DNA of 64,000 nucleotides from Candidatus Cloacimonadales bacterium. GTDB taxonomy: Bacteria > Cloacimonadota > Cloacimonadia > Cloacimonadales > DAONDQ01. The position numbers and the translations under genes were made by a program. Each line of letters starts with the position of its first letter. Position 1 is the first letter of the stretch. Location: NCBI GenBank assembly GCA_963662275.1, contig OY759316.1, forward strand, positions 1,312,001 to 1,376,000, in the 5' to 3' direction. A model generated the notes under the pieces. It was given only the letters and a program-made list of their open reading frames with translations. It was not told the DNA's origin and searched no databases. Positions 38,003-50,629 of the stretch are shown here, one piece after another.

Positions 38003-39472
38003 CTACGTAACATCTTTTACTTTCTTCAGCCTTGCTCGGAATGTATGCGGTTCCAATCCAAGTAATTTGGCAGCTTGGGTGGCATTTCCATTAGCTTTCT
38101 TTAAGGCTGACTGGTAGATGGAGGGAAGTATGATATTTTCTAGGTCTATTCCTTCAATGGGTATTTCAATGTTGAATTTATCGGAATGAGTCTCTTGAAT
38201 CAGGATATCTTTCGCTTCGACGGTATCGTTCAGGCTGTTGATGTAGGAAAGACGCACAACGCTCTTCAATTCACGGATATTACCAGTCCAGCGGTGTTTG
38301 AGTATTTTCTTTTCAGCAGCGGAGGAGAAATGCTTCTGTTCATGATTCTGCTGGCTGTATTCGGAAAGGAAATGATTTGCCAGCAGGATGATATCAGTGG
38401 CTCTATCACGTAGCGGGGGAATATACAATTCAGCCTGCACAATACGGTAGTACAGATCTTCCCTGAATGTCTTTTCTTTTATCATTTCAGATAGATTCCT
38501 GTTGCTTGCTGAGATGAGACGCACATCGATCTTCTTCGATTTACCGCCGACAGGCTGGATGGTTTGCGTTTCCAGGACTCTCAGCAGTTTGGTCTGCATG
38601 GATAAAGGCAGATCACCAATTTCATCGAGGAAGAGTGTGCCTCCGTCTGCTACAGAGAAATGACCTTCATGATCTGCAATGGCACTGGTGAAAGAGCCTT
38701 TCTTATGTCCGAAGAATTCGCTTTCAAAGAGACTTTCACTGATTGATCCGCAGTTTACAGCCACAAACGGCTTTTCCTTGCGTGCTGAATTGTAATGCAG
38801 GCACCTGGCAGCAAGCTCTTTACCTGTTCCGCTTTCACCGCCAATGAAGACTGGAATATCATACCTGGCATAGCGTGATATCCTTTCCTTCAATTCAATG
38901 ATGGAAGGATGTTCGCCAATGATCTCGTCATATTCGAGAAGCAGTTTATTCTTGAGAATGACATTTTCACGAGATAGCCTGGTCATCTCAGTCTTGATAG
39001 ATTTATCGTCAGCTATTTTGGGGAAGTCATCCAAACTGAAGGCTATTTCCTTAATTCCGATCTCCCTGGAGCTTTGAATCAGCTTTGCCTTAATTACACC
39101 GCCCTGCACAATAAAAAGCCAACAGGCATGCATCGTTGGCGTTCCAGAGGTAACAGAAATCGTGTATTCGACTTCGTTCGTCCCTTCATTCTTCAATATG
39201 GATTTCACTGCCAGGACCATAGCCGGATAGACGGTATTATAATCTGTGGGATCGATGGAAAGAGCGGGTTCGTAATGTACTTTCAGAGCAGGATGGTTCT
39301 TTTTGCAGTACACCAGGATTTCGGAGGCATAAGGAAGGTATTTGTCGCTGTTATAGAGAATATACAGATCATCGTAAGACATACTCTCCAATATGCTGAG
39401 AATTGCGCCTTTCTTGTTATCGCTTAAGAAGCAGTCATTATTTCCGATGAAACTAAGGAGTATCTTTTTCAT
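38003..39472 (-). CDS. RtcR-like sigma54 activator: CARF-like sensor, AAA+ and HTH
   Basis: N-terminal ILLSFIGNND...DPTDY...ISVTSGTPTMHACW (CARF/RtcR-like); GESGTGKE; ESEFFGHKKGSFTSA; LFLDEIGD; WTGNIREL; NATQAAKLLGL HTH. Confidence 0.85.
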   Translation of the reverse strand: MKKILLSFIGNNDCFLSDNKKGAILSILESMSYDDLYILYNSDKYLPYASEILVYCKKNHPALKVHYEPALSIDPTDYNTVYPAMVLAVKSILKNEGTNEVEYTISVTSGTPTMHACWLFIVQGGVIKAKLIQSSREIGIKEIAFSLDDFPKIADDKSIKTEMTRLSRENVILKNKLLLEYDEIIGEHPSIIELKERISRYARYDIPVFIGGESGTGKELAARCLHYNSARKEKPFVAVNCGSISESLFESEFFGHKKGSFTSAIADHEGHFSVADGGTLFLDEIGDLPLSMQTKLLRVLETQTIQPVGGKSKKIDVRLISASNRNLSEMIKEKTFREDLYYRIVQAELYIPPLRDRATDIILLANHFLSEYSQQNHEQKHFSSAAEKKILKHRWTGNIRELKSVVRLSYINSLNDTVEAKDILIQETHSDKFNIEIPIEGIDLENIILPSIYQSALKKANGNATQAAKLLGLEPHTFRARLKKVKDVT

Positions 39473-39732: not shown

Positions 39733-40175
39733 CGGAACGCCTGACCCCGTCAGGTGGCAAAAAGCACCCCGTGCGTTTCTATCTCCAAGCTGAAGCAGGC
39801 TCAACAAAGAAGCAACCTGAAGGATGCCACTACCAAAGAAAGACAGTAGGATCGGCATCCTACTCAACAAAGAAGCAACCTGAAGGATGCCACTACCAAA
39901 GAAAGACAGTAGGATCGGCATCCTACTCAACAAAGAAGCAACCTGAAGGATGCCACTACCAAAGAAAGACAGTAGGATCGGCATCCTGCACACAACCGTC
40001 TAAAGGCGGAGCTACGAAGACCAACCGCGTGAATGCGGAGCTACGAATCAGCAAGAACGGCGTCTTGCTTTACAACCGCGTGAATGCGGAGCTACGAATC
40101 AGCAAGAACGGCGTCTTGCTTTACAACCGCGTGAATGCGGAGCTACTCTTCAGCAGGAACGGTGTCCTGCTCTAC
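39733..40175. repeat. Composite REP mosaic with 3x63-bp and 3x51-bp tandem units, right flank of the CARF/HK/REC trio
   Basis: Header GGAACGCCTGACCCCGTCAGGTGGCA as at 33965; 63-bp units at 39801, 39864 and 39927; 51-bp units at 40022, 40073 and 40124. Confidence 0.85.
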
Positions 40176-40206: not shown

Positions 40207-42067
40207 GAGACTGTTCAGGCAGTTATTCATAAGATACAACAATTTAGGAAGTATCAAGTTGAAAAAAGTGGTCGAAACGGTCATAATTTAACATACCTTC
40301 CAGAATTGACAGATAAGCTCTGCTAAGGACACCAAATCACAAGTTAAGCTTTTTGACTAAAAATATCAAACACGCGAGTATAAGTAATTTCTCGAAGTCG
40401 TTTCTGACTATAAGTGTATCTAAAATCATATAAAATAGTTCTTTACATGTTTATTGCTATAGCTTCAATGGCATTTGTTACCTGGTAACAAAAGGGAGGA
40501 TATTATGACAAAAAAACACTCCAATTCAAGAAGCTGTAAGTGTCAGTCATGAAAGTAACCAATACTATGTAAGTATTAACGTACCATGTTCATTTTGTTT
40601 GCCTGAAACGACATCCAACCACAAGTTCTTAATAGCGTTTCTACGCTTATTAGTAGGAATAGGCGGAGACAACCTCCTTACACTTCAGCAAATAGCTGAT
40701 CTGTTTAACTACGCAGACCGCAGGAATGTACATAATTTCTGGCAAGAGTTTGAGCAGCATGGTCATGATATCCTGGCATATTTAAGCCGGAAAGTTGACC
40801 TGCTGGAGTGTATTCCTCAGATCGAGAATTTTGTTATCAATAACCTGCTTTTACCTTTAAATGTCATGTATCAGGAGTTCATCAGCCATCATGATTTTAA
40901 AATGTCCTATACCACTTTCTGCAAATATGCTTCTCAGGTCAATTCTCTGTCTGTAGTTAAGCAAGCTCAGAAGCTTCTTCTGAAAAAGACAGTAGGCGGT
41001 GATGCTGTACATCTGCTGAAACTGCTTGCCGGTCAGCAGAATACACCTGTTATCTGTGACAGACTCCTGGAACAAATGAAGACTGCTAAAGGCAATACAT
41101 CCCATAGAACCGCCGATGCAAAGCCGTTCCATAGTCTGGAACGCAAGAACCTGTGTCTGCTGGTACATTACCTGGTTGGAAGCGGTATGAACTTCGAGAC
41201 GATAGCTTTGCTGCTCAACACCTGTAAAGCTACAGTCTCAAATCTCTGGCATGAAATCGCTGACCTGCAGAGCCTGATTCTGAACTCAATCGGTAAGTGG
41301 AGCGGAAAGATCAGCATTGATGAGAAATATGTGAAGATCAAAGGTATTCCGTACTATGTCATCAGTATTGTTGATTTTGTGACTCACATCCCTCTGTTTT
41401 GTGAGTTGTATCCTGACACAAAGAAAGAATCATTCGAAGCATGTTTCAGAACCTTCAGACAGCTCTACAGGAAAGATCCAACCCTGATTGTCAGTGATGG
41501 CAGTAAATCGTTAGCAGTTGCAAGAAAAACAGTGTTTCCAAAAGTCCATTACCAACTCTGTAAGTTCCATAAGATACGAAATCTCTTCAAAAGAATCAGT
41601 CAATGTCATCTCCCTGAAGACAGGGACAAGTTCTTTAAGAAGAGGATTATGAAAGCTTTCCGAAGAGAAACGGCGGGCGGAAGGAAAAAGGGTATCGCAA
41701 GCCTGACAGCTATTACTCCCCCAACCGCCGCCGAATACATCAAAAGCAATATCATTAGTGATTGGAGACACCTCAGCAAAGGTTTGACTTCCAATGTCTC
41801 TGAACGCTGGAACCGCAAAATCAAGAAGGTGACATCCGGTAGATTTGGACTAAAATCTGAAGAAACCACCCGCAACCTTGTGTTTTCGCTTTGGTTCAAA
41901 GAACTGGTCGATAAAGGTCAACCAATCATGCGTCAGGAATCACTTTTAGCCAGTTTAAATATCTCCCGCATATGTCAAGAAAATGTGGATTGGTCGCACT
42001 TAGACCACTTTTTCTCTGTCACTACCAATAAGGCTGCGTAAAATGGAGGTTAATTTTGAACAGTCTC
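40207..42067 (+). mobile_element. Complete insertion sequence (1861 bp) with terminal inverted repeats and 8-bp target-site duplication
   Basis: IRL GAGACTGTTCA at 40207; IRR TGAACAGTCTC ending at 42067; direct repeat GCTACAGA at 40199-40206 and 42068-42075; encodes a DDE transposase. Confidence 0.93.
40505..42041 (+). CDS. DDE transposase (IS6/ISH6/IS256-like motifs); RBS-linked start is out of frame across an A7 run
   Basis: SIDEKYVKIKG..YVISIVD; IVSDG; HYQLCKFH; TSNVSERWN. GGGAGG-ATG at 40505 is followed by A7; the long frame opens at 40509 (the ORF track starts it at TTG 40599). Confidence 0.85.
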
Positions 42068-42239
42068 GCTACAGATTAACAATTTGCCGGTCAAAAAAGT
42101 CATTGACAACTTCAATTCTCATTCTGATTTGTTACCCTTAAAATAATTATCTTGGAATGAGAAACATAAGTGTTTGGCTATAGTGCTTTTGTGAATGAGA
42201 ATTACTGACTCGACATAAATGAAAAGAAGGGAGTAATGT

Positions 42240-45074
42240 ATGAAGTGTAAAAGGAAGAGAAGCCTTTTCATTTTAGTGGCTTTGATCTCCTTACTGGGTT
42301 TTACCATCGCTGTCAAGGCAAGCAGCGATGATAGCAGTTACGTGGTAAAAAACTTTAAGGTAGTCGATGTTCCCTATGATGATGGCACGGGTCTCCAACT
42401 CAGTTGGAATCCATTACCAAAAGAGAAGCGAATCATTGAATACCGCGTTTATCGTGGTGTTACTCCAGACAGTCTTTTCTTGCTGGGTACAATACCAATT
42501 AATGTGAAAACAGGTGTTGCCGGTGATTCAGTATATTATACTGATAAAGATTTGAATGTCCTGGTGGATATCAGTGCTCCCGGAAGATTAAAGAAAGAGA
42601 AGCAGCAAGGAGCTAAAAGTCCTTTGTACGGAGATGTCCCACGTGATGTTAAAGTACTAAACTCTATCTTCTCTAAGTATAGCTTTTTAAGTATCATTCC
42701 CAAAAAAGACTTCTATTACCGTACGACAAAAACAAATGCACCTGATAAGGCAGATTCAACTACATACGCCGGTTTGAAGATGAGACAGGTAACTTTGCTT
42801 GCCAGTTTAAATCCAAATACGAAGTATTATTATACAGTTGTTGCTTTAGATGAACGACGTGCTTTTCATAAGCATGCCCCTGTTCAATCAGGTATCCCTG
42901 TAGAAAATGCACCGGAACCAGTTCCCAAATTTAGTTCAGTGTATGTGAAAGATACGAATAAGATGCAGTTTGAGTGGGAATTACCCTTGTTCAAGGGTGA
43001 TCTGGCACAATATCAGATTTATGCTGTTCCTGCTTCATCACAAGCAGCCTTCGATGATTTCCGCCTTCATCCCATTCCCCAAACTCAATCTCCAGGTTTG
43101 CCAATTGCTGCCGGACAGATCGACATTGCCAGTTCAGATTCCTATAATATGGCTATTGTTGATATGAATGGAAGATCCCTCAATCCAGATACAATAGATC
43201 AACTTCGATTTGCTATTGGAATCATGGATTATGCTGGGAATGAAGTATTATCTTCGCTGGTTGCCCCAAAAGTCATCCTTTCTTCCCAACTACCTCCCAG
43301 ACCAACTTTTCTAGTGAAAGATAAACCGAATGATAAAGGTGAAATTCTTACACTCACTTGGAATAAACCGGTTGTATATGTGAACCAGACAAATTTCATC
43401 AGTGCTGATCGCAAGAAACTGATGGTTAATTACATGGAAAATGTGAATTCTGAGTTTAAGATAAAAAAACTGGCTTTCGATTTCTATAAGATCAATGATA
43501 CGAAGCCATTTAAGACACATCACGAATATTACCAGGATAACAAGATCATTGTAACACTACCTAAAGATTATAATCCTGAACTCGGATTGAATGTCAGGAT
43601 TAGGATTACATCCGTGCCTGCAGTATCTGATAAGTATGTCTTCACACAAAATCTTGTTTTCAATAAACAGACAAAATCCATGATTCCAGATAAATTGATG
43701 TCGGACGGAAAAGACGTGAACGAATTTTCCTATGTGATTTATAAAAAATTACGCAATTCCCAATCCTACACTCTTTCTAAAAAGCTCAACGGTAATCAAA
43801 ACTCGTTTGATGATAATATCCGTTTTGAAAAGGATATTTACAAACCTGTGGCTTACATGGATAAGAAAACAAACCAGGTATTGGTGAATTCAGATATTGA
43901 CATCACTTATGATAAAAAGGCAAAAGCTGTTGTTCAAACCAGTATTTATGCAAATGAAGCAAAAAAGCTGATGGCTAAACAGAAGAAAAGCTTGGATGAT
44001 AAACTCATTCAATTACGTGCCCAGATTCCCCAGGTCAATGATCCACAGCAATTAGCACAACTACAGGACCAGATTAATAAAACAACCGCCAGGCTGGAAA
44101 TGTTTAATAATCCTATCCTGAAGCAATCACTTACATTTACAGGTGATAGAAGCCGTATGCATTTCGTTTCTGCTAACAGGGAAAGTAATAAGCGCCAGGC
44201 ATCTTATCGGATGATTGTCAGTAATGGTGAAGGCATTTTTACCGAGTCTGATATCACGAAGGACAAAGACGACGAGACAGTTTATTATACACCTGTCGGA
44301 AATTGGTTTGATAAATCGAAAATTCCGATGCTGATAGCTTCAATCGTGTTCGGTTTACTGGTTGCCTTCATGATTCGCAAGGCGAAATTGGGACACGATC
44401 TCTTCATTCGTCCTATTGCCGGTATCCAGGAAATTGATAATGCTATAGGTAGAGCCACGGAAATGGGTAAACCAATCCTGTATTGTCCAGGTCTCGGTGG
44501 TCTTTCTGATGTAGCTACCATAGCTTCATTAGGTATTCTGGGTCAGGTTGCGAAGAAGACTGCTGAATATGATACGAAATTGATCGTTCCATGTTATGAC
44601 TTTATCATGATGCCTGTTGCCCAGGAAATCGTGAGAGAAGCTCATTATGAAGCAGGTCGTCCTGATTCATATGATAAGAACAATGTGTTTTATCTAACGA
44701 ATGTGCAATTTGCGTATGTTGCAGGTGTAAATGGTATTATGATTCGTGAAAACTGTGCTACAAACTTCTATATGGGTATGTTCTATGCAGAGGCTTTGTT
44801 GATGACAGAAACTGGTAATACGATCGGTTCAATTCAAATTGCCGGAACAGATGCTGTTACCCAGATTCCTTTCTTCATAACAACATGCGATTATACACTT
44901 ATTGGAGAAGAATTATATGCTGCTTCAGCGTATTTAGTTAAAGAACCCATGATGTTGGGAACCCTGAAAGCTCAGGATTATTTTAAATTCCTGATTCTGT
45001 TCTTTGTGATTCTTGGAACAGTGCTGACAACTAGTCACATAACTTTTTTAATTAATGTATTTCCTGAGAAGTAG
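42240..45074 (+). CDS. Membrane protein with exported FN3-like domains, coiled coil and C-terminal DUF6754-like domain
   Basis: Signal peptide; FN3-like motifs DVPYDDG.GL.LSW...EYRVYRG, YYYTVVA, DKPNDKG..L.LTW; TM segment; then IRPIAGI.EID.AIGRATEMG...QFAYVAGV...GMFYAEALL..ETG...IQIAGT...PFF...CDYTLIGEELYAASAYL...LKAQD. DUF6754 name is from memory. Confidence 0.75.
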   Translation: MKCKRKRSLFILVALISLLGFTIAVKASSDDSSYVVKNFKVVDVPYDDGTGLQLSWNPLPKEKRIIEYRVYRGVTPDSLFLLGTIPINVKTGVAGDSVYYTDKDLNVLVDISAPGRLKKEKQQGAKSPLYGDVPRDVKVLNSIFSKYSFLSIIPKKDFYYRTTKTNAPDKADSTTYAGLKMRQVTLLASLNPNTKYYYTVVALDERRAFHKHAPVQSGIPVENAPEPVPKFSSVYVKDTNKMQFEWELPLFKGDLAQYQIYAVPASSQAAFDDFRLHPIPQTQSPGLPIAAGQIDIASSDSYNMAIVDMNGRSLNPDTIDQLRFAIGIMDYAGNEVLSSLVAPKVILSSQLPPRPTFLVKDKPNDKGEILTLTWNKPVVYVNQTNFISADRKKLMVNYMENVNSEFKIKKLAFDFYKINDTKPFKTHHEYYQDNKIIVTLPKDYNPELGLNVRIRITSVPAVSDKYVFTQNLVFNKQTKSMIPDKLMSDGKDVNEFSYVIYKKLRNSQSYTLSKKLNGNQNSFDDNIRFEKDIYKPVAYMDKKTNQVLVNSDIDITYDKKAKAVVQTSIYANEAKKLMAKQKKSLDDKLIQLRAQIPQVNDPQQLAQLQDQINKTTARLEMFNNPILKQSLTFTGDRSRMHFVSANRESNKRQASYRMIVSNGEGIFTESDITKDKDDETVYYTPVGNWFDKSKIPMLIASIVFGLLVAFMIRKAKLGHDLFIRPIAGIQEIDNAIGRATEMGKPILYCPGLGGLSDVATIASLGILGQVAKKTAEYDTKLIVPCYDFIMMPVAQEIVREAHYEAGRPDSYDKNNVFYLTNVQFAYVAGVNGIMIRENCATNFYMGMFYAEALLMTETGNTIGSIQIAGTDAVTQIPFFITTCDYTLIGEELYAASAYLVKEPMMLGTLKAQDYFKFLILFFVILGTVLTTSHITFLINVFPEK

Positions 45075-45082
45075 GAGGATAG

Positions 45083-45709
45083 ATGAAAAGACAAATACCT
45101 CTAGCAATAGTCATCGTACTCGGTTTTATATTTGTGTTATATACCTTTATTCCACACAAGATACTGGCAGATGACTTTTTTAACTGGTATCAGAATTGGA
45201 GTTATGCAATGGCTCCTTTCGGTATGTTACTGGGCGTTATCAGTTTAGTCATGATGCACAGTGTCAAGATTTCCCGTAAGCTTCCGAAATGGCAATTTAG
45301 TTTTGTCACATTAGGCGGTTTGCTTATCACGACAATCGCGGGAATAGCATGGGGAATTCAAGATGGAACACCGTTCATGTGGATTTTCCAAAATATGCAA
45401 ATGCCTATGAGTTCAACGATGTTTTCTCTCTTAGCCTTTTATATCGCTTCTGCTGCCTATAAAGCATTCAGAGCAAGATCACCTGAAGCAACTGTTTTAC
45501 TGGGATCTGCAATCGTGGTGATGCTTGCCCAGGTACCGATCGGAATCATGATCAGCAAGCACTTACCCGATATATCAATGTGGATACTGAACGTTCCCAA
45601 CCTGGCTGCCAAACGCGGCATTCTCTTGGGAGTAGGTTTAGGTAGTGTGGCAACGTCGCTAAAGATACTGCTGGGGATTGAAAGATCCTACCTCGGCGGC
45701 GGGGATTAA
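45083..45709 (+). CDS. Conserved polytopic membrane protein of unknown function
   Basis: About 5-6 hydrophobic helices; TMFSLLAFYIASAAYKAFRARS..A.VLL; VPNLAAKRGILLGVGLG...LKILLGIERSYL; AGGAGG RBS. Confidence 0.75.
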   Translation: MKRQIPLAIVIVLGFIFVLYTFIPHKILADDFFNWYQNWSYAMAPFGMLLGVISLVMMHSVKISRKLPKWQFSFVTLGGLLITTIAGIAWGIQDGTPFMWIFQNMQMPMSSTMFSLLAFYIASAAYKAFRARSPEATVLLGSAIVVMLAQVPIGIMISKHLPDISMWILNVPNLAAKRGILLGVGLGSVATSLKILLGIERSYLGGGD

Positions 45710-45717
45710 AGGGGGAT

Positions 45718-46866
45718 ATGATGAGCTTCTTTGAAAAATTACAGGCATTAGACAGACATTGGATCTATCTGATTGTTGCATTGGCAATCATCATTCCTCT
45801 GATGGTACCGTTTAACTCGAAAACCTACACAACTGAACCGACCGAGAAAATGTATCAGTTGATTGACTCCTATGCAGGTCGTTCAGATCGTGCCATACTA
45901 ATTTCCTTTGCCCATGACGCCTCCGTGATGCCTGAACTTTATCCGATGGAAATTGCCATTCTGCGTCATTGCTTTGAACGTAAAGTAAAGGTATTCACTC
46001 TGACATTTACTCCCTCCGGAGCACCGATTATTGATCTTGCAATCAACCGTGTGAAGGAAGAATATCCGGATATCAGATCCGGTGTGGATTATTGCAACTT
46101 TGGTTACAAACCATTAGCATTACCGGCTATTCTCGGTATGGGTGAAAATATTGCTACAGCCATCGATACCGATGCTGAAGGAAGAAAGATTGCTACCCTG
46201 CCGATTATGAAGGATATCACTAATTATAATGAAATGAATCTTGTCGTGGAAACTTCCGGCGCTTCCGCTGGTGGGGCATGGATTTTTTATGCTCGTGTTA
46301 AGTTCGGTGTAAATGTTGCCATTGGTGTGACTGCGGTTATGGCTGCTGATGAATTTCCTTATCTGCAGACTGGACAATTAACGGGTATGCTGACAGGCTT
46401 GAAGGGAGCTGCTGAATATGAGAAGCTGGTTGATGTTTTTGCAGCCTATAGAGATGAAACTCATCCGCATGGACGTCCATTCAGTACAGAAATCCTTCGC
46501 GAGAAGGAAACGGATAAACTTGTGAATATTACCACCCAGGAGAATGCAGTATTTTCTAAAGAGGAATATCAGAACTTCCTGAGACTATATCCTTCTGCAA
46601 TGTCCGTACTTGAGAATATCAAGAAAGAGGACGATAATAATGTTACAATTAAAGTCATCGATCTTGATGACAGTCAAAAAGAACAGATAGGTTTTGAAGC
46701 AATGGCTGCTTTAAAATACCAGACACATAATGTAATTTATAAATTCAAAACAGCCCGCATTGGAATGAATGCTCAATCTGTAGCACATGTAATGATTATC
46801 GTATTTATCATTATCGGGAACATTGGGTATTTTCTAACACGTAAAAAACAGAACGTGGCGAAGTAG
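45718..46866 (+). CDS. Membrane protein with N- and C-terminal TM helices around a soluble alpha/beta domain; unknown function
   Basis: DRHWIYLIV..TM; ELYPM..A...H; GVDYCNFGYKP; GVTAVMA...PYLQTGQL.GML.GLKGAAEYE; MNAQSVAH-TM-GNIGY-RKK. Confidence 0.75.
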   Translation: MMSFFEKLQALDRHWIYLIVALAIIIPLMVPFNSKTYTTEPTEKMYQLIDSYAGRSDRAILISFAHDASVMPELYPMEIAILRHCFERKVKVFTLTFTPSGAPIIDLAINRVKEEYPDIRSGVDYCNFGYKPLALPAILGMGENIATAIDTDAEGRKIATLPIMKDITNYNEMNLVVETSGASAGGAWIFYARVKFGVNVAIGVTAVMAADEFPYLQTGQLTGMLTGLKGAAEYEKLVDVFAAYRDETHPHGRPFSTEILREKETDKLVNITTQENAVFSKEEYQNFLRLYPSAMSVLENIKKEDDNNVTIKVIDLDDSQKEQIGFEAMAALKYQTHNVIYKFKTARIGMNAQSVAHVMIIVFIIIGNIGYFLTRKKQNVAK

Positions 46867-46875
46867 GGAGGATAC

Positions 46876-47481
46876 ATGATTAGTTTTGAAACTTTCAGTA
46901 ACTTAGTTGCAGCATTCTTTACACTATGCATCTTCTCATTCTTATACAAGGATAATCCTTTCTATCAGTTTGCTGAACAACTACTAGTTGGTGTTTCTGT
47001 TGGATATGGTGTTGTTTATACATACTTCCGTACTTTCATACCTTATGTATGGCAACCTATTGTGCTGAAGCATCAGTATATTTTAGTTTTCCCAGTGATT
47101 ATCGGTTTGCTCTATCTATTCCGTTTTAGTAAGAATCTTAGTTGGCTATCCCGTTATCCAATCGCCTGGTCTATGGTTATGGTTGGTATGGGAGTACCCT
47201 TAGGTATGCATGCTTCTGTTCTAGTACAGATGAGAAGTGCAATGCTTCCATTAGACAATATCAACACGATTCTCATCTTTATCGGAACGATTGCAGTTTT
47301 GACATATTTCTACTTTTCCAAAGCACATACTGGCTTATATGGCAAGTTCACTAAGATCGGTGTGTGGTATATGATGATAGGATTCGGTGCTTCATTCGGT
47401 CTTACCGTTATGGCGCGTATTTCTTTACTGATCGGGAGAATTCAGTTCCTGGTTGGTGATGTACTGCATCTTATCAAATAA
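46876..47481 (+). CDS. Conserved polytopic membrane protein of unknown function
   Basis: About 6 hydrophobic helices; TLCIFSFLYKDNPFY.FAE.LLVGVSVG; LTYFYFS...IGVWYMMIGFGASFG.TVMARISLLIGR. Confidence 0.75.
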   Translation: MISFETFSNLVAAFFTLCIFSFLYKDNPFYQFAEQLLVGVSVGYGVVYTYFRTFIPYVWQPIVLKHQYILVFPVIIGLLYLFRFSKNLSWLSRYPIAWSMVMVGMGVPLGMHASVLVQMRSAMLPLDNINTILIFIGTIAVLTYFYFSKAHTGLYGKFTKIGVWYMMIGFGASFGLTVMARISLLIGRIQFLVGDVLHLIK

Positions 47482-47495
47482 AACAAAAGATTTCG

Positions 47496-47518
47496 AAGCC
47501 CGGTAAAAGACCGGGCTT
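47496..47518 (+). terminator. Intra-operon hairpin (weak terminator or mRNA stabiliser)
   Basis: AAGCCCGGT-AAAAG-ACCGGGCTT with only a short T run. Confidence 0.5.
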
Positions 47519-47542
47519 TCGATTTATGGAAAAGGTGGAAAT

Positions 47543-50428
47543 ATGAAAATCTTAAGTTTTAAAATAATTACACTCCTCTTATTATGCCTCATTGTACTTA
47601 CTTTATCAGCACAACAAACCGGTAGTAGAATGGTCAAAAATCTGAGTGTTTATGATAATCCTAATGATGACGGTTCAGGACTGGTTATAAAATGGACTCC
47701 TTTACCCAACTCAAATCGTACTTTGGAGTATCGTGTATATCGTGGTATTTCACCAGATACTCTTTTCCTCTTGGGAAGCATACCTGTTGATCCCGTAGCC
47801 GGATTTGCAGGTAAAGAAATGTTCTTTTATGATAAAGATTATCATGATTTTGTATCAATTCTATCTCCGGCAAAACTGAAAAAAGAAGAACAGCAAACAT
47901 CGAAAAGCCCTTTATACAAAGCCATACCCAAAGATCCCAAAATCTACGGTCCTTTGATTAATCACTATTCACTACTATCGATCATCCCTAAAAAATCGAT
48001 TTATAATCATACAAAATTGATCAGGATTGAAGATGATAAGGCATTGGGTGGTTTGGAATTGAGACGTTTTGAATCCATCCTGGCAAATGTGATCCCTGGT
48101 AAGAAATACTATTACACAGTCGTTGCTGTTGATGAGAAGAGAGTACTATCATCCTATGCACCCATTGTATCTGCCATTCCCTATGATAATCCCCCTGAAA
48201 CTGCGATAACATTAACGCCAAGATTCTTCCAAGAAAAAAGACAACTTAATTTCGAATGGACGCTGCCATTAAACAAATCTGATGTAGCAGAATATCGAAT
48301 TTATGCTTTAGAAAAGGCAAGAATACCCCAATTTCAAACATATTTAGAGGAACAGAATCACATTAATTCAATCCTGGAACAACAACAGGTTTATCCTGAA
48401 CAATATAAGACAGTTCCAGACCCTAAATTCACAAATCCCGCTTTCTTGATTGCTAGTAGTCCAAATCCACTTAATCCTATGGCAAATCTGATCATACAAT
48501 TTGACCAGGATGGTAAAATCATTGATGCAGCAAATAAATCCAATGCCTCATTGGATATGAATCGGATGCAGGATTATGTATTTATTTTGAGCTTGCCTGA
48601 TTATTATGGGTTTGAATCCTTTTCTCCATTGTTTCCAGCAAAAATAGGCATTGTTTCAGACCTTCCAACGCTTCCCACTTTTTCTGTAAGAGATAAACCA
48701 AATGATAAGGGTGACATGAATGAATTATCATTTGGAAGACCTATAGCCCTTATTTCCCAGGCTTTTTACAATGCAAAAAAAACAAAAATGACTTTTAATT
48801 ATGATTTTGCTACAAATGCTAATTATAAAATTATCAATGTATTCTTCAAAATATACGACAAAAAAGGCAATTTCCTAGGTTCAGTGAAAGAGTATTATCC
48901 TGATAATATCTTCAAATTCACACTTCCTAAAGGATCACCGGTATCTGATGAATATTTTCTGAAGATCGGGTTCAAATTAAAGGGACCTGAATTGAAGGAG
49001 AATTTCTATATTACGCAGAAGATAATGCTCGATTCTGCCACGAAGAGATTTGCCAATCGTGGATTGTACTTTGATAGAGAAAACCTGAACAGGTTCAATT
49101 ACCTGATTCTTAACAAATCAAAATCTGATCCTGGTTTTCAGCAGGTCAAAAAGCTTTCTACCATCTCACGTGGTTTTGATGACAATATTCCATTCGAAAC
49201 AATCGTGTATAAAGGAATTAACCGTTACGATCCAAAATCGAATACTCTCCTCTTTGATCCTACTTTGGATATTGGATATGATGTGAAACGGGAAATGCCT
49301 GTTTCTGTAAATTTATTTGCTGCTGAGATGAAGAAGTCTCTTCAGAAATGGAATAAACAGGTTGATACTCTCAAAGTAAAATATGCTAAAGCCACAACTG
49401 CTGAAAAGGCTTCCATACAAGATGAGATGGATTATTATCAGAAAATGATTGATTTGGTCACGAATGATCCTGATATCAAGAAATTGAATGCTATCACCGA
49501 CCCAAAAGAAAGGATGAAACTCTTAGCAATTATTCGTGAAACAAATCTTCGTACGTTTTCTTATAGATTGATCAAATCTGATGGAGATGGGAATTTCCTG
49601 ATTTCTGACATCTACAAGAATTCTGCCAGCAATGATTTTTTCTTTCCTATAGCCAACTGGTTTGATAAGACAAAAATTCCTATGATCATAGCTTCCCTGT
49701 TATTTACACTGTTGGTTGTCATCATGGGAATTCGCACGAAGCAGGGAAAGGATCTCTTTATCAGACCTATTGCCGGAATTGATGAAATTGATAATGCCGT
49801 AGGCAGAGCAACTGAAATGGGACGCCCAATCCTTTATGTGCCTGGTCTAAATACGATTGGTGAAATTGCCACGATCGCTTCTATGATCATTCTTGGTCGT
49901 ATTGCCAAAAAAACAGCAGAATACGATACCAGACTATTGGTGCCCAATTGCGACTACTATGTTTTACCTTTAGCGCAGGAAATCGTGAAGGAAGGTCATT
50001 ACGAAGCAGGTCGTCCGGATAGTTATGATCAGAATAATATCTTCTTCATATCAACAGATCAATTTCCTTATGTTGCCGGTGTGAATGGAACTATGATTCG
50101 TGAAAAGACAGCTACCAATTTCTACATGGGTACTTTTTATGCGGAAGCGTTGCTGATGACAGAAACTGGTAATGCAACAGGCGCTATTCAAATCGCAGGT
50201 ACAGATGCTGTAACCCAGATTCCTTTCTTCATTACTACTTGTGATTATACTCTCATTGGTGAAGAATTCTATGCTGCATCTGCTTATTTATCTAAAGATC
50301 CTGAGATTTTAGGTACTTTAAAAGCTCAAGATTATTTCAAATTCGTTATTGTTTTCTTCATTATCCTGGGAACGATACTAACTTCATTACATCTGAATAG
50401 CTTAATCTATTCGTTCCCAACGGAATAA
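47543..50428 (+). CDS. Paralog of 42240-45074 (FN3-like plus DUF6754-like)
   Basis: Same motif order. The C-terminal ~250 aa are highly similar; the exported N-terminal region is more diverged. Confidence 0.75.
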   Translation: MKILSFKIITLLLLCLIVLTLSAQQTGSRMVKNLSVYDNPNDDGSGLVIKWTPLPNSNRTLEYRVYRGISPDTLFLLGSIPVDPVAGFAGKEMFFYDKDYHDFVSILSPAKLKKEEQQTSKSPLYKAIPKDPKIYGPLINHYSLLSIIPKKSIYNHTKLIRIEDDKALGGLELRRFESILANVIPGKKYYYTVVAVDEKRVLSSYAPIVSAIPYDNPPETAITLTPRFFQEKRQLNFEWTLPLNKSDVAEYRIYALEKARIPQFQTYLEEQNHINSILEQQQVYPEQYKTVPDPKFTNPAFLIASSPNPLNPMANLIIQFDQDGKIIDAANKSNASLDMNRMQDYVFILSLPDYYGFESFSPLFPAKIGIVSDLPTLPTFSVRDKPNDKGDMNELSFGRPIALISQAFYNAKKTKMTFNYDFATNANYKIINVFFKIYDKKGNFLGSVKEYYPDNIFKFTLPKGSPVSDEYFLKIGFKLKGPELKENFYITQKIMLDSATKRFANRGLYFDRENLNRFNYLILNKSKSDPGFQQVKKLSTISRGFDDNIPFETIVYKGINRYDPKSNTLLFDPTLDIGYDVKREMPVSVNLFAAEMKKSLQKWNKQVDTLKVKYAKATTAEKASIQDEMDYYQKMIDLVTNDPDIKKLNAITDPKERMKLLAIIRETNLRTFSYRLIKSDGDGNFLISDIYKNSASNDFFFPIANWFDKTKIPMIIASLLFTLLVVIMGIRTKQGKDLFIRPIAGIDEIDNAVGRATEMGRPILYVPGLNTIGEIATIASMIILGRIAKKTAEYDTRLLVPNCDYYVLPLAQEIVKEGHYEAGRPDSYDQNNIFFISTDQFPYVAGVNGTMIREKTATNFYMGTFYAEALLMTETGNATGAIQIAGTDAVTQIPFFITTCDYTLIGEEFYAASAYLSKDPEILGTLKAQDYFKFVIVFFIILGTILTSLHLNSLIYSFPTE

Positions 50429-50448: not shown

Positions 50449-50478
50449 AAAGGTCATCCGCAAGGATGACCTTTTGTT
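50449..50478 (+). terminator. Intrinsic, possibly bidirectional terminator between the membrane operon and uvrA
   Basis: AAAGGTCATCC-GCAA-GGATGACCTTTTGTT. Confidence 0.75.
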
Positions 50479-50629
50479 ATGTGGAGTAGGATTCCGATCC
50501 TACTGATTAGAGGTTGAAGTCCAAACTTCCCACAAGATCGCATGTAGATCAAGATTCGAAGGAAGTTTGAACTCCAACGCTCGAGGAATCTGTTTTAGTT
50601 ACTCAGCAAGAACGGCGTCTTGCTTTACG

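Follow-up and report, generated by a model that had tools for sequence, protein, structure and literature searches.

A conserved DUF6754 gene cassette in a Cloacimonadales genome, predicted to encode a multi-subunit inner-membrane complex

The DNA considered here, referred to as the window, is the 64,000-nucleotide (nt) stretch from position 1,312,001 to 1,376,000 (forward strand) of contig OY759316.1, in the genome assembly GCA_963662275.1 of a Candidatus Cloacimonadales bacterium. Five co-oriented open reading frames (ORFs) lie in it in the order A1-B-C-D-A2, encoding proteins of 944, 208, 382, 201 and 961 amino acids (aa) according to the ORF list. This locus is predicted to be one cassette of a widespread four-subunit inner-membrane complex, A-B-C-D, together with a second A paralog. 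The genes and signals of the locus are listed below in window positions, with the basis of each assignment in brackets; TM stands for transmembrane segment.

42042..42239, + strand: upstream intergenic region, probable promoter region (198-nt gap after the preceding ORF)
42240..45074, + strand: A1, 944 aa (ORF; PF20539)
45083..45709, + strand: B, 208 aa, polytopic membrane protein (ORF)
45718..46866, + strand: C, 382 aa, TM-domain-TM protein (ORF; AlphaFold model)
46876..47481, + strand: D, 201 aa, polytopic membrane protein (ORF)
47493..47522, + strand: intercistronic RNA hairpin in the D/A2 spacer (fold energy)
47543..50428, + strand: A2, 961 aa, second large subunit (ORF; PF20539)
50449..50474, + strand: intrinsic terminator-like hairpin at the operon end (11-pair stem, loop of 4, T-rich tail)

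The initial annotation, made from the sequence alone, had described five tightly spaced co-oriented genes ending at a terminator. Its coordinates, sizes and gaps are all exact, with spacers of 8, 8, 9 and 61 nt in gene order, each ending in a purine-rich Shine-Dalgarno-like stretch, and the terminator-like hairpin is found after the last gene. The gap upstream of A1 is the probable, putatively assigned promoter region of the operon, and a promoter scan gave weak sigma-70-like matches (9/12) in it, at 42116-42144 and 42157-42184. The hairpin in the D/A2 spacer has a fold energy of -19.4 kcal/mol (z -3.40), and none of 200 shuffles was equally stable. Its T-tail is weak, and the terminator scan did not call it; it is possibly a partial terminator or a stabiliser. 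Because such a strong hairpin precedes A2, expression of A2 may be partly uncoupled from that of A1-B-C-D.

The only Pfam family detected among the five proteins is DUF6754 (PF20539), located at aa 687-940 of A1 (E 7.7e-118, 392.7 bits, 254/257 positions) and aa 704-953 of A2 (E 1.6e-117, 391.6 bits, 250/257 positions), both passing the gathering score of 27 bits. A1 and A2, already regarded as paralogs in the initial annotation, are 44% identical end to end, and no other DUF6754 match occurs in the genome (4.38 Mb, single contig). A1 is composed of a signal peptide (aa 1-27), an exported FN3-like region with a coiled-coil stretch (aa 28 to about 690), a TM (694-712), an α/β domain and a C-terminal TM (917-935), and A2 has the same architecture. 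B has six hydrophobic segments and D six or seven. C consists of an N-terminal TM (14-32), a Rossmann-like α/β domain (about 40-242), an insert (about 243-344), a second TM (345-381) and a basic tail. No NCBIfam family was found for any of the five proteins, and B, C and D have no Pfam family. Walker A and CxxC motifs are absent from all five, and their only GxGxxG lies within a TM segment of B. Pfam and NCBIfam scans together with the Walker A check gave no ATPase or nucleotide-binding family or motif among the operon proteins, in line with the earlier observation that ATPase, redox-cofactor and transporter motifs are missing. Scans of individual family members against Pfam (E<=0.1) returned scattered weak matches for B (68 sequences) and D (66 sequences), none of them consistent, the commonest in the B family being 7TMR-DISM_7TM (10/68). 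No consistent Pfam family was obtained for 11 short C relatives either.

The order of the four genes is strongly conserved. Loci were fetched from public genomes with a 14-sequence alignment of C relatives from outside Cloacimonadota, giving 77 loci labeled WOR-3, Stahlbacteria, Edwardsbacteria, Zixibacteria, TA06, Eisenbacteria, Latescibacterota, Poribacteria, Armatimonadota, Ignavibacteria and Cloacimonadota, about ten phyla that are mostly uncultured. In phmmer searches with the A domain, B, C and D of the window, matches were found in 72, 75, 77 and 76 of these loci, respectively, and the full A-B-C-D order, based on our own ORF calls, is kept in 71 of the 77 across phyla. A single set occurs in 49 loci, two tandem sets in 12 and three in 3; 6 loci have an additional A or C, and one locus (L073) reads A-B-C-D after an over-extended ORF is discounted. 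Among the six loci lacking the full order, four begin at most 1.4 kb from a contig end, one is cut after C, and one, L054, is an orphan C-D pair located mid-chromosome in a WOR-3 genome, the same chromosome having a full cassette (L043). Many cassette gene junctions overlap by 4 or 1 nt. The window locus has the same adjacent, co-oriented A-B-C-D genes in order, plus the second A. Judging from this synteny, the four-gene core is real, ancient, strongly conserved and often multi-copy.

Individual subunits are distributed in a comparable way. Of 201 Cloacimonadota genomes sampled, 193 have a match to C (144/151 among the high-quality ones), and the eight genomes without a match include all six of one family, with genomes of 1.6 Mb. 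In a second class, to which genome G201 belongs, 81/81 genomes encode DUF6754, at 2-6 matches per genome. When 1.84 billion cluster representatives were searched exhaustively, 2160 C relatives were obtained at E<=1e-3, most of them 270-300 aa long; the 382-aa form therefore carries an insert specific to its lineage, which the model places at about aa 243-344. C relatives bearing a source name are mostly from Cloacimonadota. No model of C or of a B relative is present in the ESM Atlas. For B, 3745 relatives were obtained at the same threshold (90% clusters). Outside Cloacimonadota, A proteins are 350-440 aa and comprise a signal-like segment, one FN3-like domain, a TM and DUF6754; a Pfam scan of 20 such short proteins from other phyla detected DUF6754 in 20/20 and a weak fn3 match in 4/20. 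The N-terminal 650 aa of A1/A2 have matches in nine loci only and are a Cloacimonadota enlargement. Long C relatives are also observed, in which HEAT repeats (643-aa protein) or a CARDB domain (838-aa protein) precede the C-like region.

To look beyond the four genes, 518 flanking ORFs of the 77 loci were clustered. The only tightly recurring flanking family is a 375-aa protein with no Pfam family. In 11/77 loci its gene precedes A by 6-232 nt in the same orientation, and in one more it is downstream; the different phyla represented include WOR-3, Latescibacterota, Poribacteria and Eisenbacteria-like bins. In five of the loci, the 375-aa gene is preceded by a gene encoding a PF13941 protein (MutL/GlmL, an actin-fold ATPase), and such a gene is located nearby in a sixth. 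The genome studied here encodes a GlmL-like protein of 620 aa (PF13941, E 3e-128) that adjoins a 376-aa protein, 52% identical to the 375-aa query and with a weak match to Biotin_lipoyl/barrel-sandwich domains. This pair, identified by profile and sequence matches, is found at about 4155.5-4158.5 kb of the contig, roughly 2.8 Mb from the operon; four other Cloacimonadota genomes encode counterparts of the GlmL-like protein at 73-81% identity. In the Cloacimonadota family lacking C, the GlmL-like ATPase was not found in 6/6 genomes and DUF6754 was not found in the 3/3 genomes searched. The ATPase was detected in 4/5 cassette-bearing genomes from other phyla. The cassette is probably not self-contained, since the GlmL-like ATPase and its 375-aa partner recur as neighbors.

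Some further features of these neighbors have been observed. In 3/77 loci (L027, L004, L051), the next gene after the cassette, at -3 to 128 nt, resembles lipoate/biotin protein ligases, and the 375-aa protein has a biotinyl/lipoyl-like hairpin in which the lysine is mostly conserved. Given both the ligase-like neighbor and the lysine hairpin, a covalently modified swinging arm is conceivable. In the genome studied here, the GlmL-like/376-aa pair adjoins two large proteins with type-IX-secretion sorting domains.

The soluble domains of A and C are predicted to lie on opposite faces of the membrane. The N-termini of A1 and A2, as read from the sequence, are classical signal peptides with a basic n-region, a hydrophobic core and AVKA/SS or LSA/QQ, and an N-terminal hydrophobic segment is present in 75/86 A ORFs from the fetched loci. 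With the FN3 region exported and one TM before DUF6754, the α/β domain of A would be cytoplasmic; the short C-tail after its TM2 carries 0.69 lysine plus arginine residues (K+R) on average. In the C family (78 sequences), both tails are basic, with 2.65 K+R in the N-tail, which contains a conserved DRR, and 4.06 in the C-tail, placing the domain between the two TMs in the periplasm. Signal peptides and family-wide positive-inside counts thus back, as a prediction, the opposite sidedness that had been claimed for the two soluble domains, and the assignment of the α/β domain of A to the cytoplasm and that of C to the periplasm is supported. C shows the mirror arrangement of A, with a TM, a periplasmic Rossmann-like domain and a TM. 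For B, the loops on the N-terminal (even) side contain 9.6 K+R and those on the odd side 3.8, and both termini are predicted to be inside (N-in). For D, values of 2.8-4.8 on the N-terminal side and 6.4-7.1 on the other suggest that the protein is probably N-out, a call less strong than that for B. In B relatives from Planctomycetota and others, aa 92 and 93 are separated by an insert of 400 aa or by FG-GAP repeats; this point falls precisely within the predicted periplasmic loop, which supports the topology prediction. Mean pairwise identity is 0.53 for the A domain, 0.50 for D, 0.48 for B and 0.42 for C; these values mark a constrained core and a more variable periplasmic part.

The B family shows other elaborations. 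Planctomycete homologs, among them proteins from Rubinisphaera and Thalassoroseus species, reach about 615 aa and contain the insert of about 400 aa in that loop, and other B relatives bear FG-GAP repeats or a Cu_amine_oxidN1 domain. Rubinisphaera brasiliensis is one culturable planctomycete with a B homolog. One planctomycete B homolog carries the source label 'ECF (energy-coupling factor) transporter S component', for which Pfam and NCBIfam scans give no support.

Whether the paired subunits are homologous was addressed by sequence, profile and model comparisons. BLASTP returned nothing for the pairs C/A1 and B/D. With hhalign, run locally as well as globally, with or without secondary structure and with reversed controls, the C family and the DUF6754 domain aligned at a probability of 2.0% over 43 columns only, in the AQ/GQ-plus-TM2 stretch. 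The C-A profile runs overall gave 1.5-5.5%, and even with secondary structure added they were no better than the reversed-sequence controls. B and D aligned at 9.3%, the first half of B pairing with the second half of D in a manner that is not co-linear, and half-against-half tests, including D against itself, reached at most 5.5%. Three similarities put forward in the initial annotation are thus not borne out: the likeness claimed between the C-terminal motifs of DUF6754 and those of the 382-aa protein (23-43 columns at 1.5-2%, no better than reversed controls), the LLxGVxxG motif common to the 208- and 201-aa proteins (at most 9.3%) and an internal repeat in the 201-aa protein (5.5%). By these profile measures, the quoted motifs do not rise above chance.

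The structural models point to a resemblance between C and the A domain. AlphaFold models of C and of A1 aa 655-944 have a predicted local distance difference test (pLDDT) score of 92.8 and 91.3, respectively, and display a common order of elements similar in length: TM, helix α0, six β-α units, TM. In Foldseek searches of the PDB, neither model obtained a match at E<=1e-3, and 4-phosphopantoate-β-alanine ligase tops both lists as a weak neighbor. An exhaustive VIA-align search found 14 of the top 50 entries common to both models with corresponding spans; for example, 1kjn_B aligns to C 57-241 through residues 6-156 and to A 89-247 through residues 6-148, and 4j16_C to C 39-241 through residues 279-450 and to A 73-247 through residues 280-445. 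Neither the C profile nor that of the A domain matched any PDB sequence at E<=1. There is thus partial support for the A domain and C sharing, in the models, the same architecture and fold class on opposite faces, common descent being unproven by sequence profiles.

These data bear directly on a model that extends the interpretation of the initial annotation, a self-contained secondary transporter that arose from an ancient duplication of (A domain + B) and (C + D) units in opposite orientations, with two-fold pseudo-symmetry. The opposite sidedness of the A domain and C, and of B and D, would fit it, as would the identical secondary-structure order of the A-domain and C models, their common VIA-align entries with matching template spans, and the ligase heading both Foldseek lists. 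However, the profile comparisons (A domain-C, B-D and half-against-half) gave only the low probabilities above, with no signal beyond reversed controls even when secondary structure was added, and the recurrent ATPase neighbor speaks against a self-contained unit. Known inverted pairs such as RnfA/E are recognizably homologous, which also counts against this model. We regard it as improbable. What stands of the "inverted homologous subunits" is their placement on opposite faces, the element order and the weak structural neighbors; because profiles detected no A-C or B-D homology, the homology itself is unestablished.

The interpretation that we favor, tentatively and at slightly below even confidence, is that the cassette encodes a modular uptake or export machine of a new kind, a putative multi-subunit translocation module that is possibly ATPase-coupled. 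B and D would form the translocation path through the membrane, and C together with the FN3 arm of A, the more variable periplasmic parts, would meet a substrate or an envelope partner and give specificity. The cytoplasmic domain of A could be the docking site for an energy or partner module encoded elsewhere, the likeliest being the GlmL-like actin-fold ATPase with the 375-aa barrel-sandwich protein. Tandem paralogy is typical of transport modules. The tandem and dispersed multi-copy cassettes argue for modular transport, since a lone housekeeping motor or enzyme is not usually multi-copy. It could also be hypothesized, though we think it unlikely, that the cassette is the membrane portion of an envelope translocation machine of a class not known before, in which several interchangeable A-B-C-D modules are powered by a single GlmL-like ATPase and its barrel-sandwich partner, and that the Rossmann-like domains on both faces of each module are structurally equivalent and result from an ancient inverted duplication beyond sequence detection.

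The conserved residues would also fit two other functions. R178 and E200 of B are invariant and H59, R130 and R201 nearly so (68-sequence alignment); in D, N27, E34, R181 and R188 are invariant (66-sequence alignment); and TM2 carries conserved Q, H357 and N368 in C and has D259 and K262 at it in A. Invariant charged or polar residues in or beside the TMs (R178 and E200 of B, all four of D, H357 and N368 of C, D259 and K262 of A) would be expected of an ion-driven force transducer, in which B/D act as an ion-conducting stator and A/C as lever arms transmitting conformational energy to the periplasm or outer layers, as in ExbBD-TonB, TolQR and GldLM. The periplasmic FN3 arm of A, about 650 aa long with a coiled-coil stretch in Cloacimonadota, would suit a lever, and ExbB/ExbD genes occur within 4.5 kb in 6/77 loci. 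However, those neighbors are distant and infrequent, 2-6 copies per genome would be unusual for a motor, and Pfam scans revealed no similarity to the MotA/ExbB/TolQ or ExbD families, so this function is judged rather unlikely.

In the α/β domains, the invariant residues gather at the C-terminal ends of β-strands. This clustering, along with the near-universal presence of the system in whole clades, could instead indicate a membrane enzyme complex of envelope biogenesis, whose Rossmann-like domains would bind a nucleotide-activated or lipid-linked substrate on each face while B/D hold or flip the carrier. Such an enzyme is quite unlikely, given that the domains have no glycine-rich nucleotide loop, that a periplasmic nucleotide-binding domain would have no obvious ligand and that the flanking-ORF clusters of the 77 loci contain no conserved biosynthetic genes beside the cassette.

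Compared with known systems, the proposed translocation module resembles the Rnf/Nqr complexes (RnfA/RnfE, NqrD/NqrE) in having two polytopic subunits of about 200 aa, of opposite predicted orientation, beside bitopic subunits with soluble domains. It differs from them in that neither B nor D, nor any of the 68 and 66 members of their families, matches an Rnf-Nqr family (E<=0.1), that B and D are not detectably homologous (the 9.3% given above), and that the operon is without cofactor motifs or a NADH- or ferredoxin-binding subunit. ECF transporters are similar in their small six-TM subunits, present in several copies per genome, and in that these may share a separately encoded ATPase module, but the candidate ATPase here has an actin fold (PF13941) rather than an ABC (ATP-binding cassette) fold, and Pfam and NCBIfam gave no S-component, EcfT/CbiQ, EcfA or ABC ATPase match in the operon. 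The proton-translocating transhydrogenase, with its domain III on a membrane domain, provides an analogy only, as do the Rnf/Nqr subunits and ECF transporters. The PF20539 entry covers the TM-domain-TM part of A only and names no function in the catalogue. A full-text literature search retrieved no paper mentioning DUF6754 or PF20539, and nothing relevant was among the entries listed for GlmL/ASKHA or for a general query. No characterized match was thus obtained in Pfam, NCBIfam, PDB sequences or the literature searched. The hetero-oligomeric system of unknown class put forward in the initial annotation is supported by the synteny across phyla and by the lack of a characterized match; the paired-subunit homology, on which the comparison with RnfA/E and NqrD/E rests, is not supported.

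Several points weigh against an ATPase-coupled translocation module. The A-B-C-D complex is predicted from its genes, and Pfam and NCBIfam scans detected no transporter signature in any subunit. No described transporter, pump or secretion system matches this unstudied assembly, B and D being compared by sequence only, and these two may have a known fold. The ATPase link consists of adjacency in 11/77 loci and co-absence in one reduced lineage, which is one evolutionary event, and in this genome the ATPase is about 2.8 Mb from the window operon. Moreover, genome G069 (93% complete) has the ATPase, with C and DUF6754 not found there, and G201 (completeness unknown) has the cassette with no PF13941 match.

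The system is near-universal in Cloacimonadota and in at least one other class, and is also present in about ten further phyla, cultured Planctomycetota included. Its proteins are about 50% identical across phyla, yet the DUF6754 cassette is without an assigned function, paper or structural relative. Should it prove to act in transport or energy coupling, the few classes of membrane machine would gain another, and a block of genes annotated as 'hypothetical' across thousands of environmental genomes would be accounted for. Coupling to the actin-fold ATPase, if true, would correct a widespread annotation, in which this protein is now a B12-enzyme helper.

Other elements were observed around the operon. 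Directly upstream, a 480-aa ORF (40599-42041, + strand) resembles an insertion sequence (IS)-type transposase by eye. A 489-aa ORF (38003-39472, - strand) shows, also by eye, a sigma-54-activator-like AAA+ core (GESGTGKE) with an N-terminal domain that is not a receiver. Two tandem arrays are located upstream of the transposase-like ORF, at 39800-39987 (63 bp x 3.0, 100%) and 40022-40175 (51 bp x 3.0, 93%). Their 20-nt hairpin core recurs at 50605-50624, just past the operon terminator, and has 49 exact copies in the genome, often in arrays (reversed control, 0); it is a dispersed element of the repetitive extragenic palindromic (REP)-like type.

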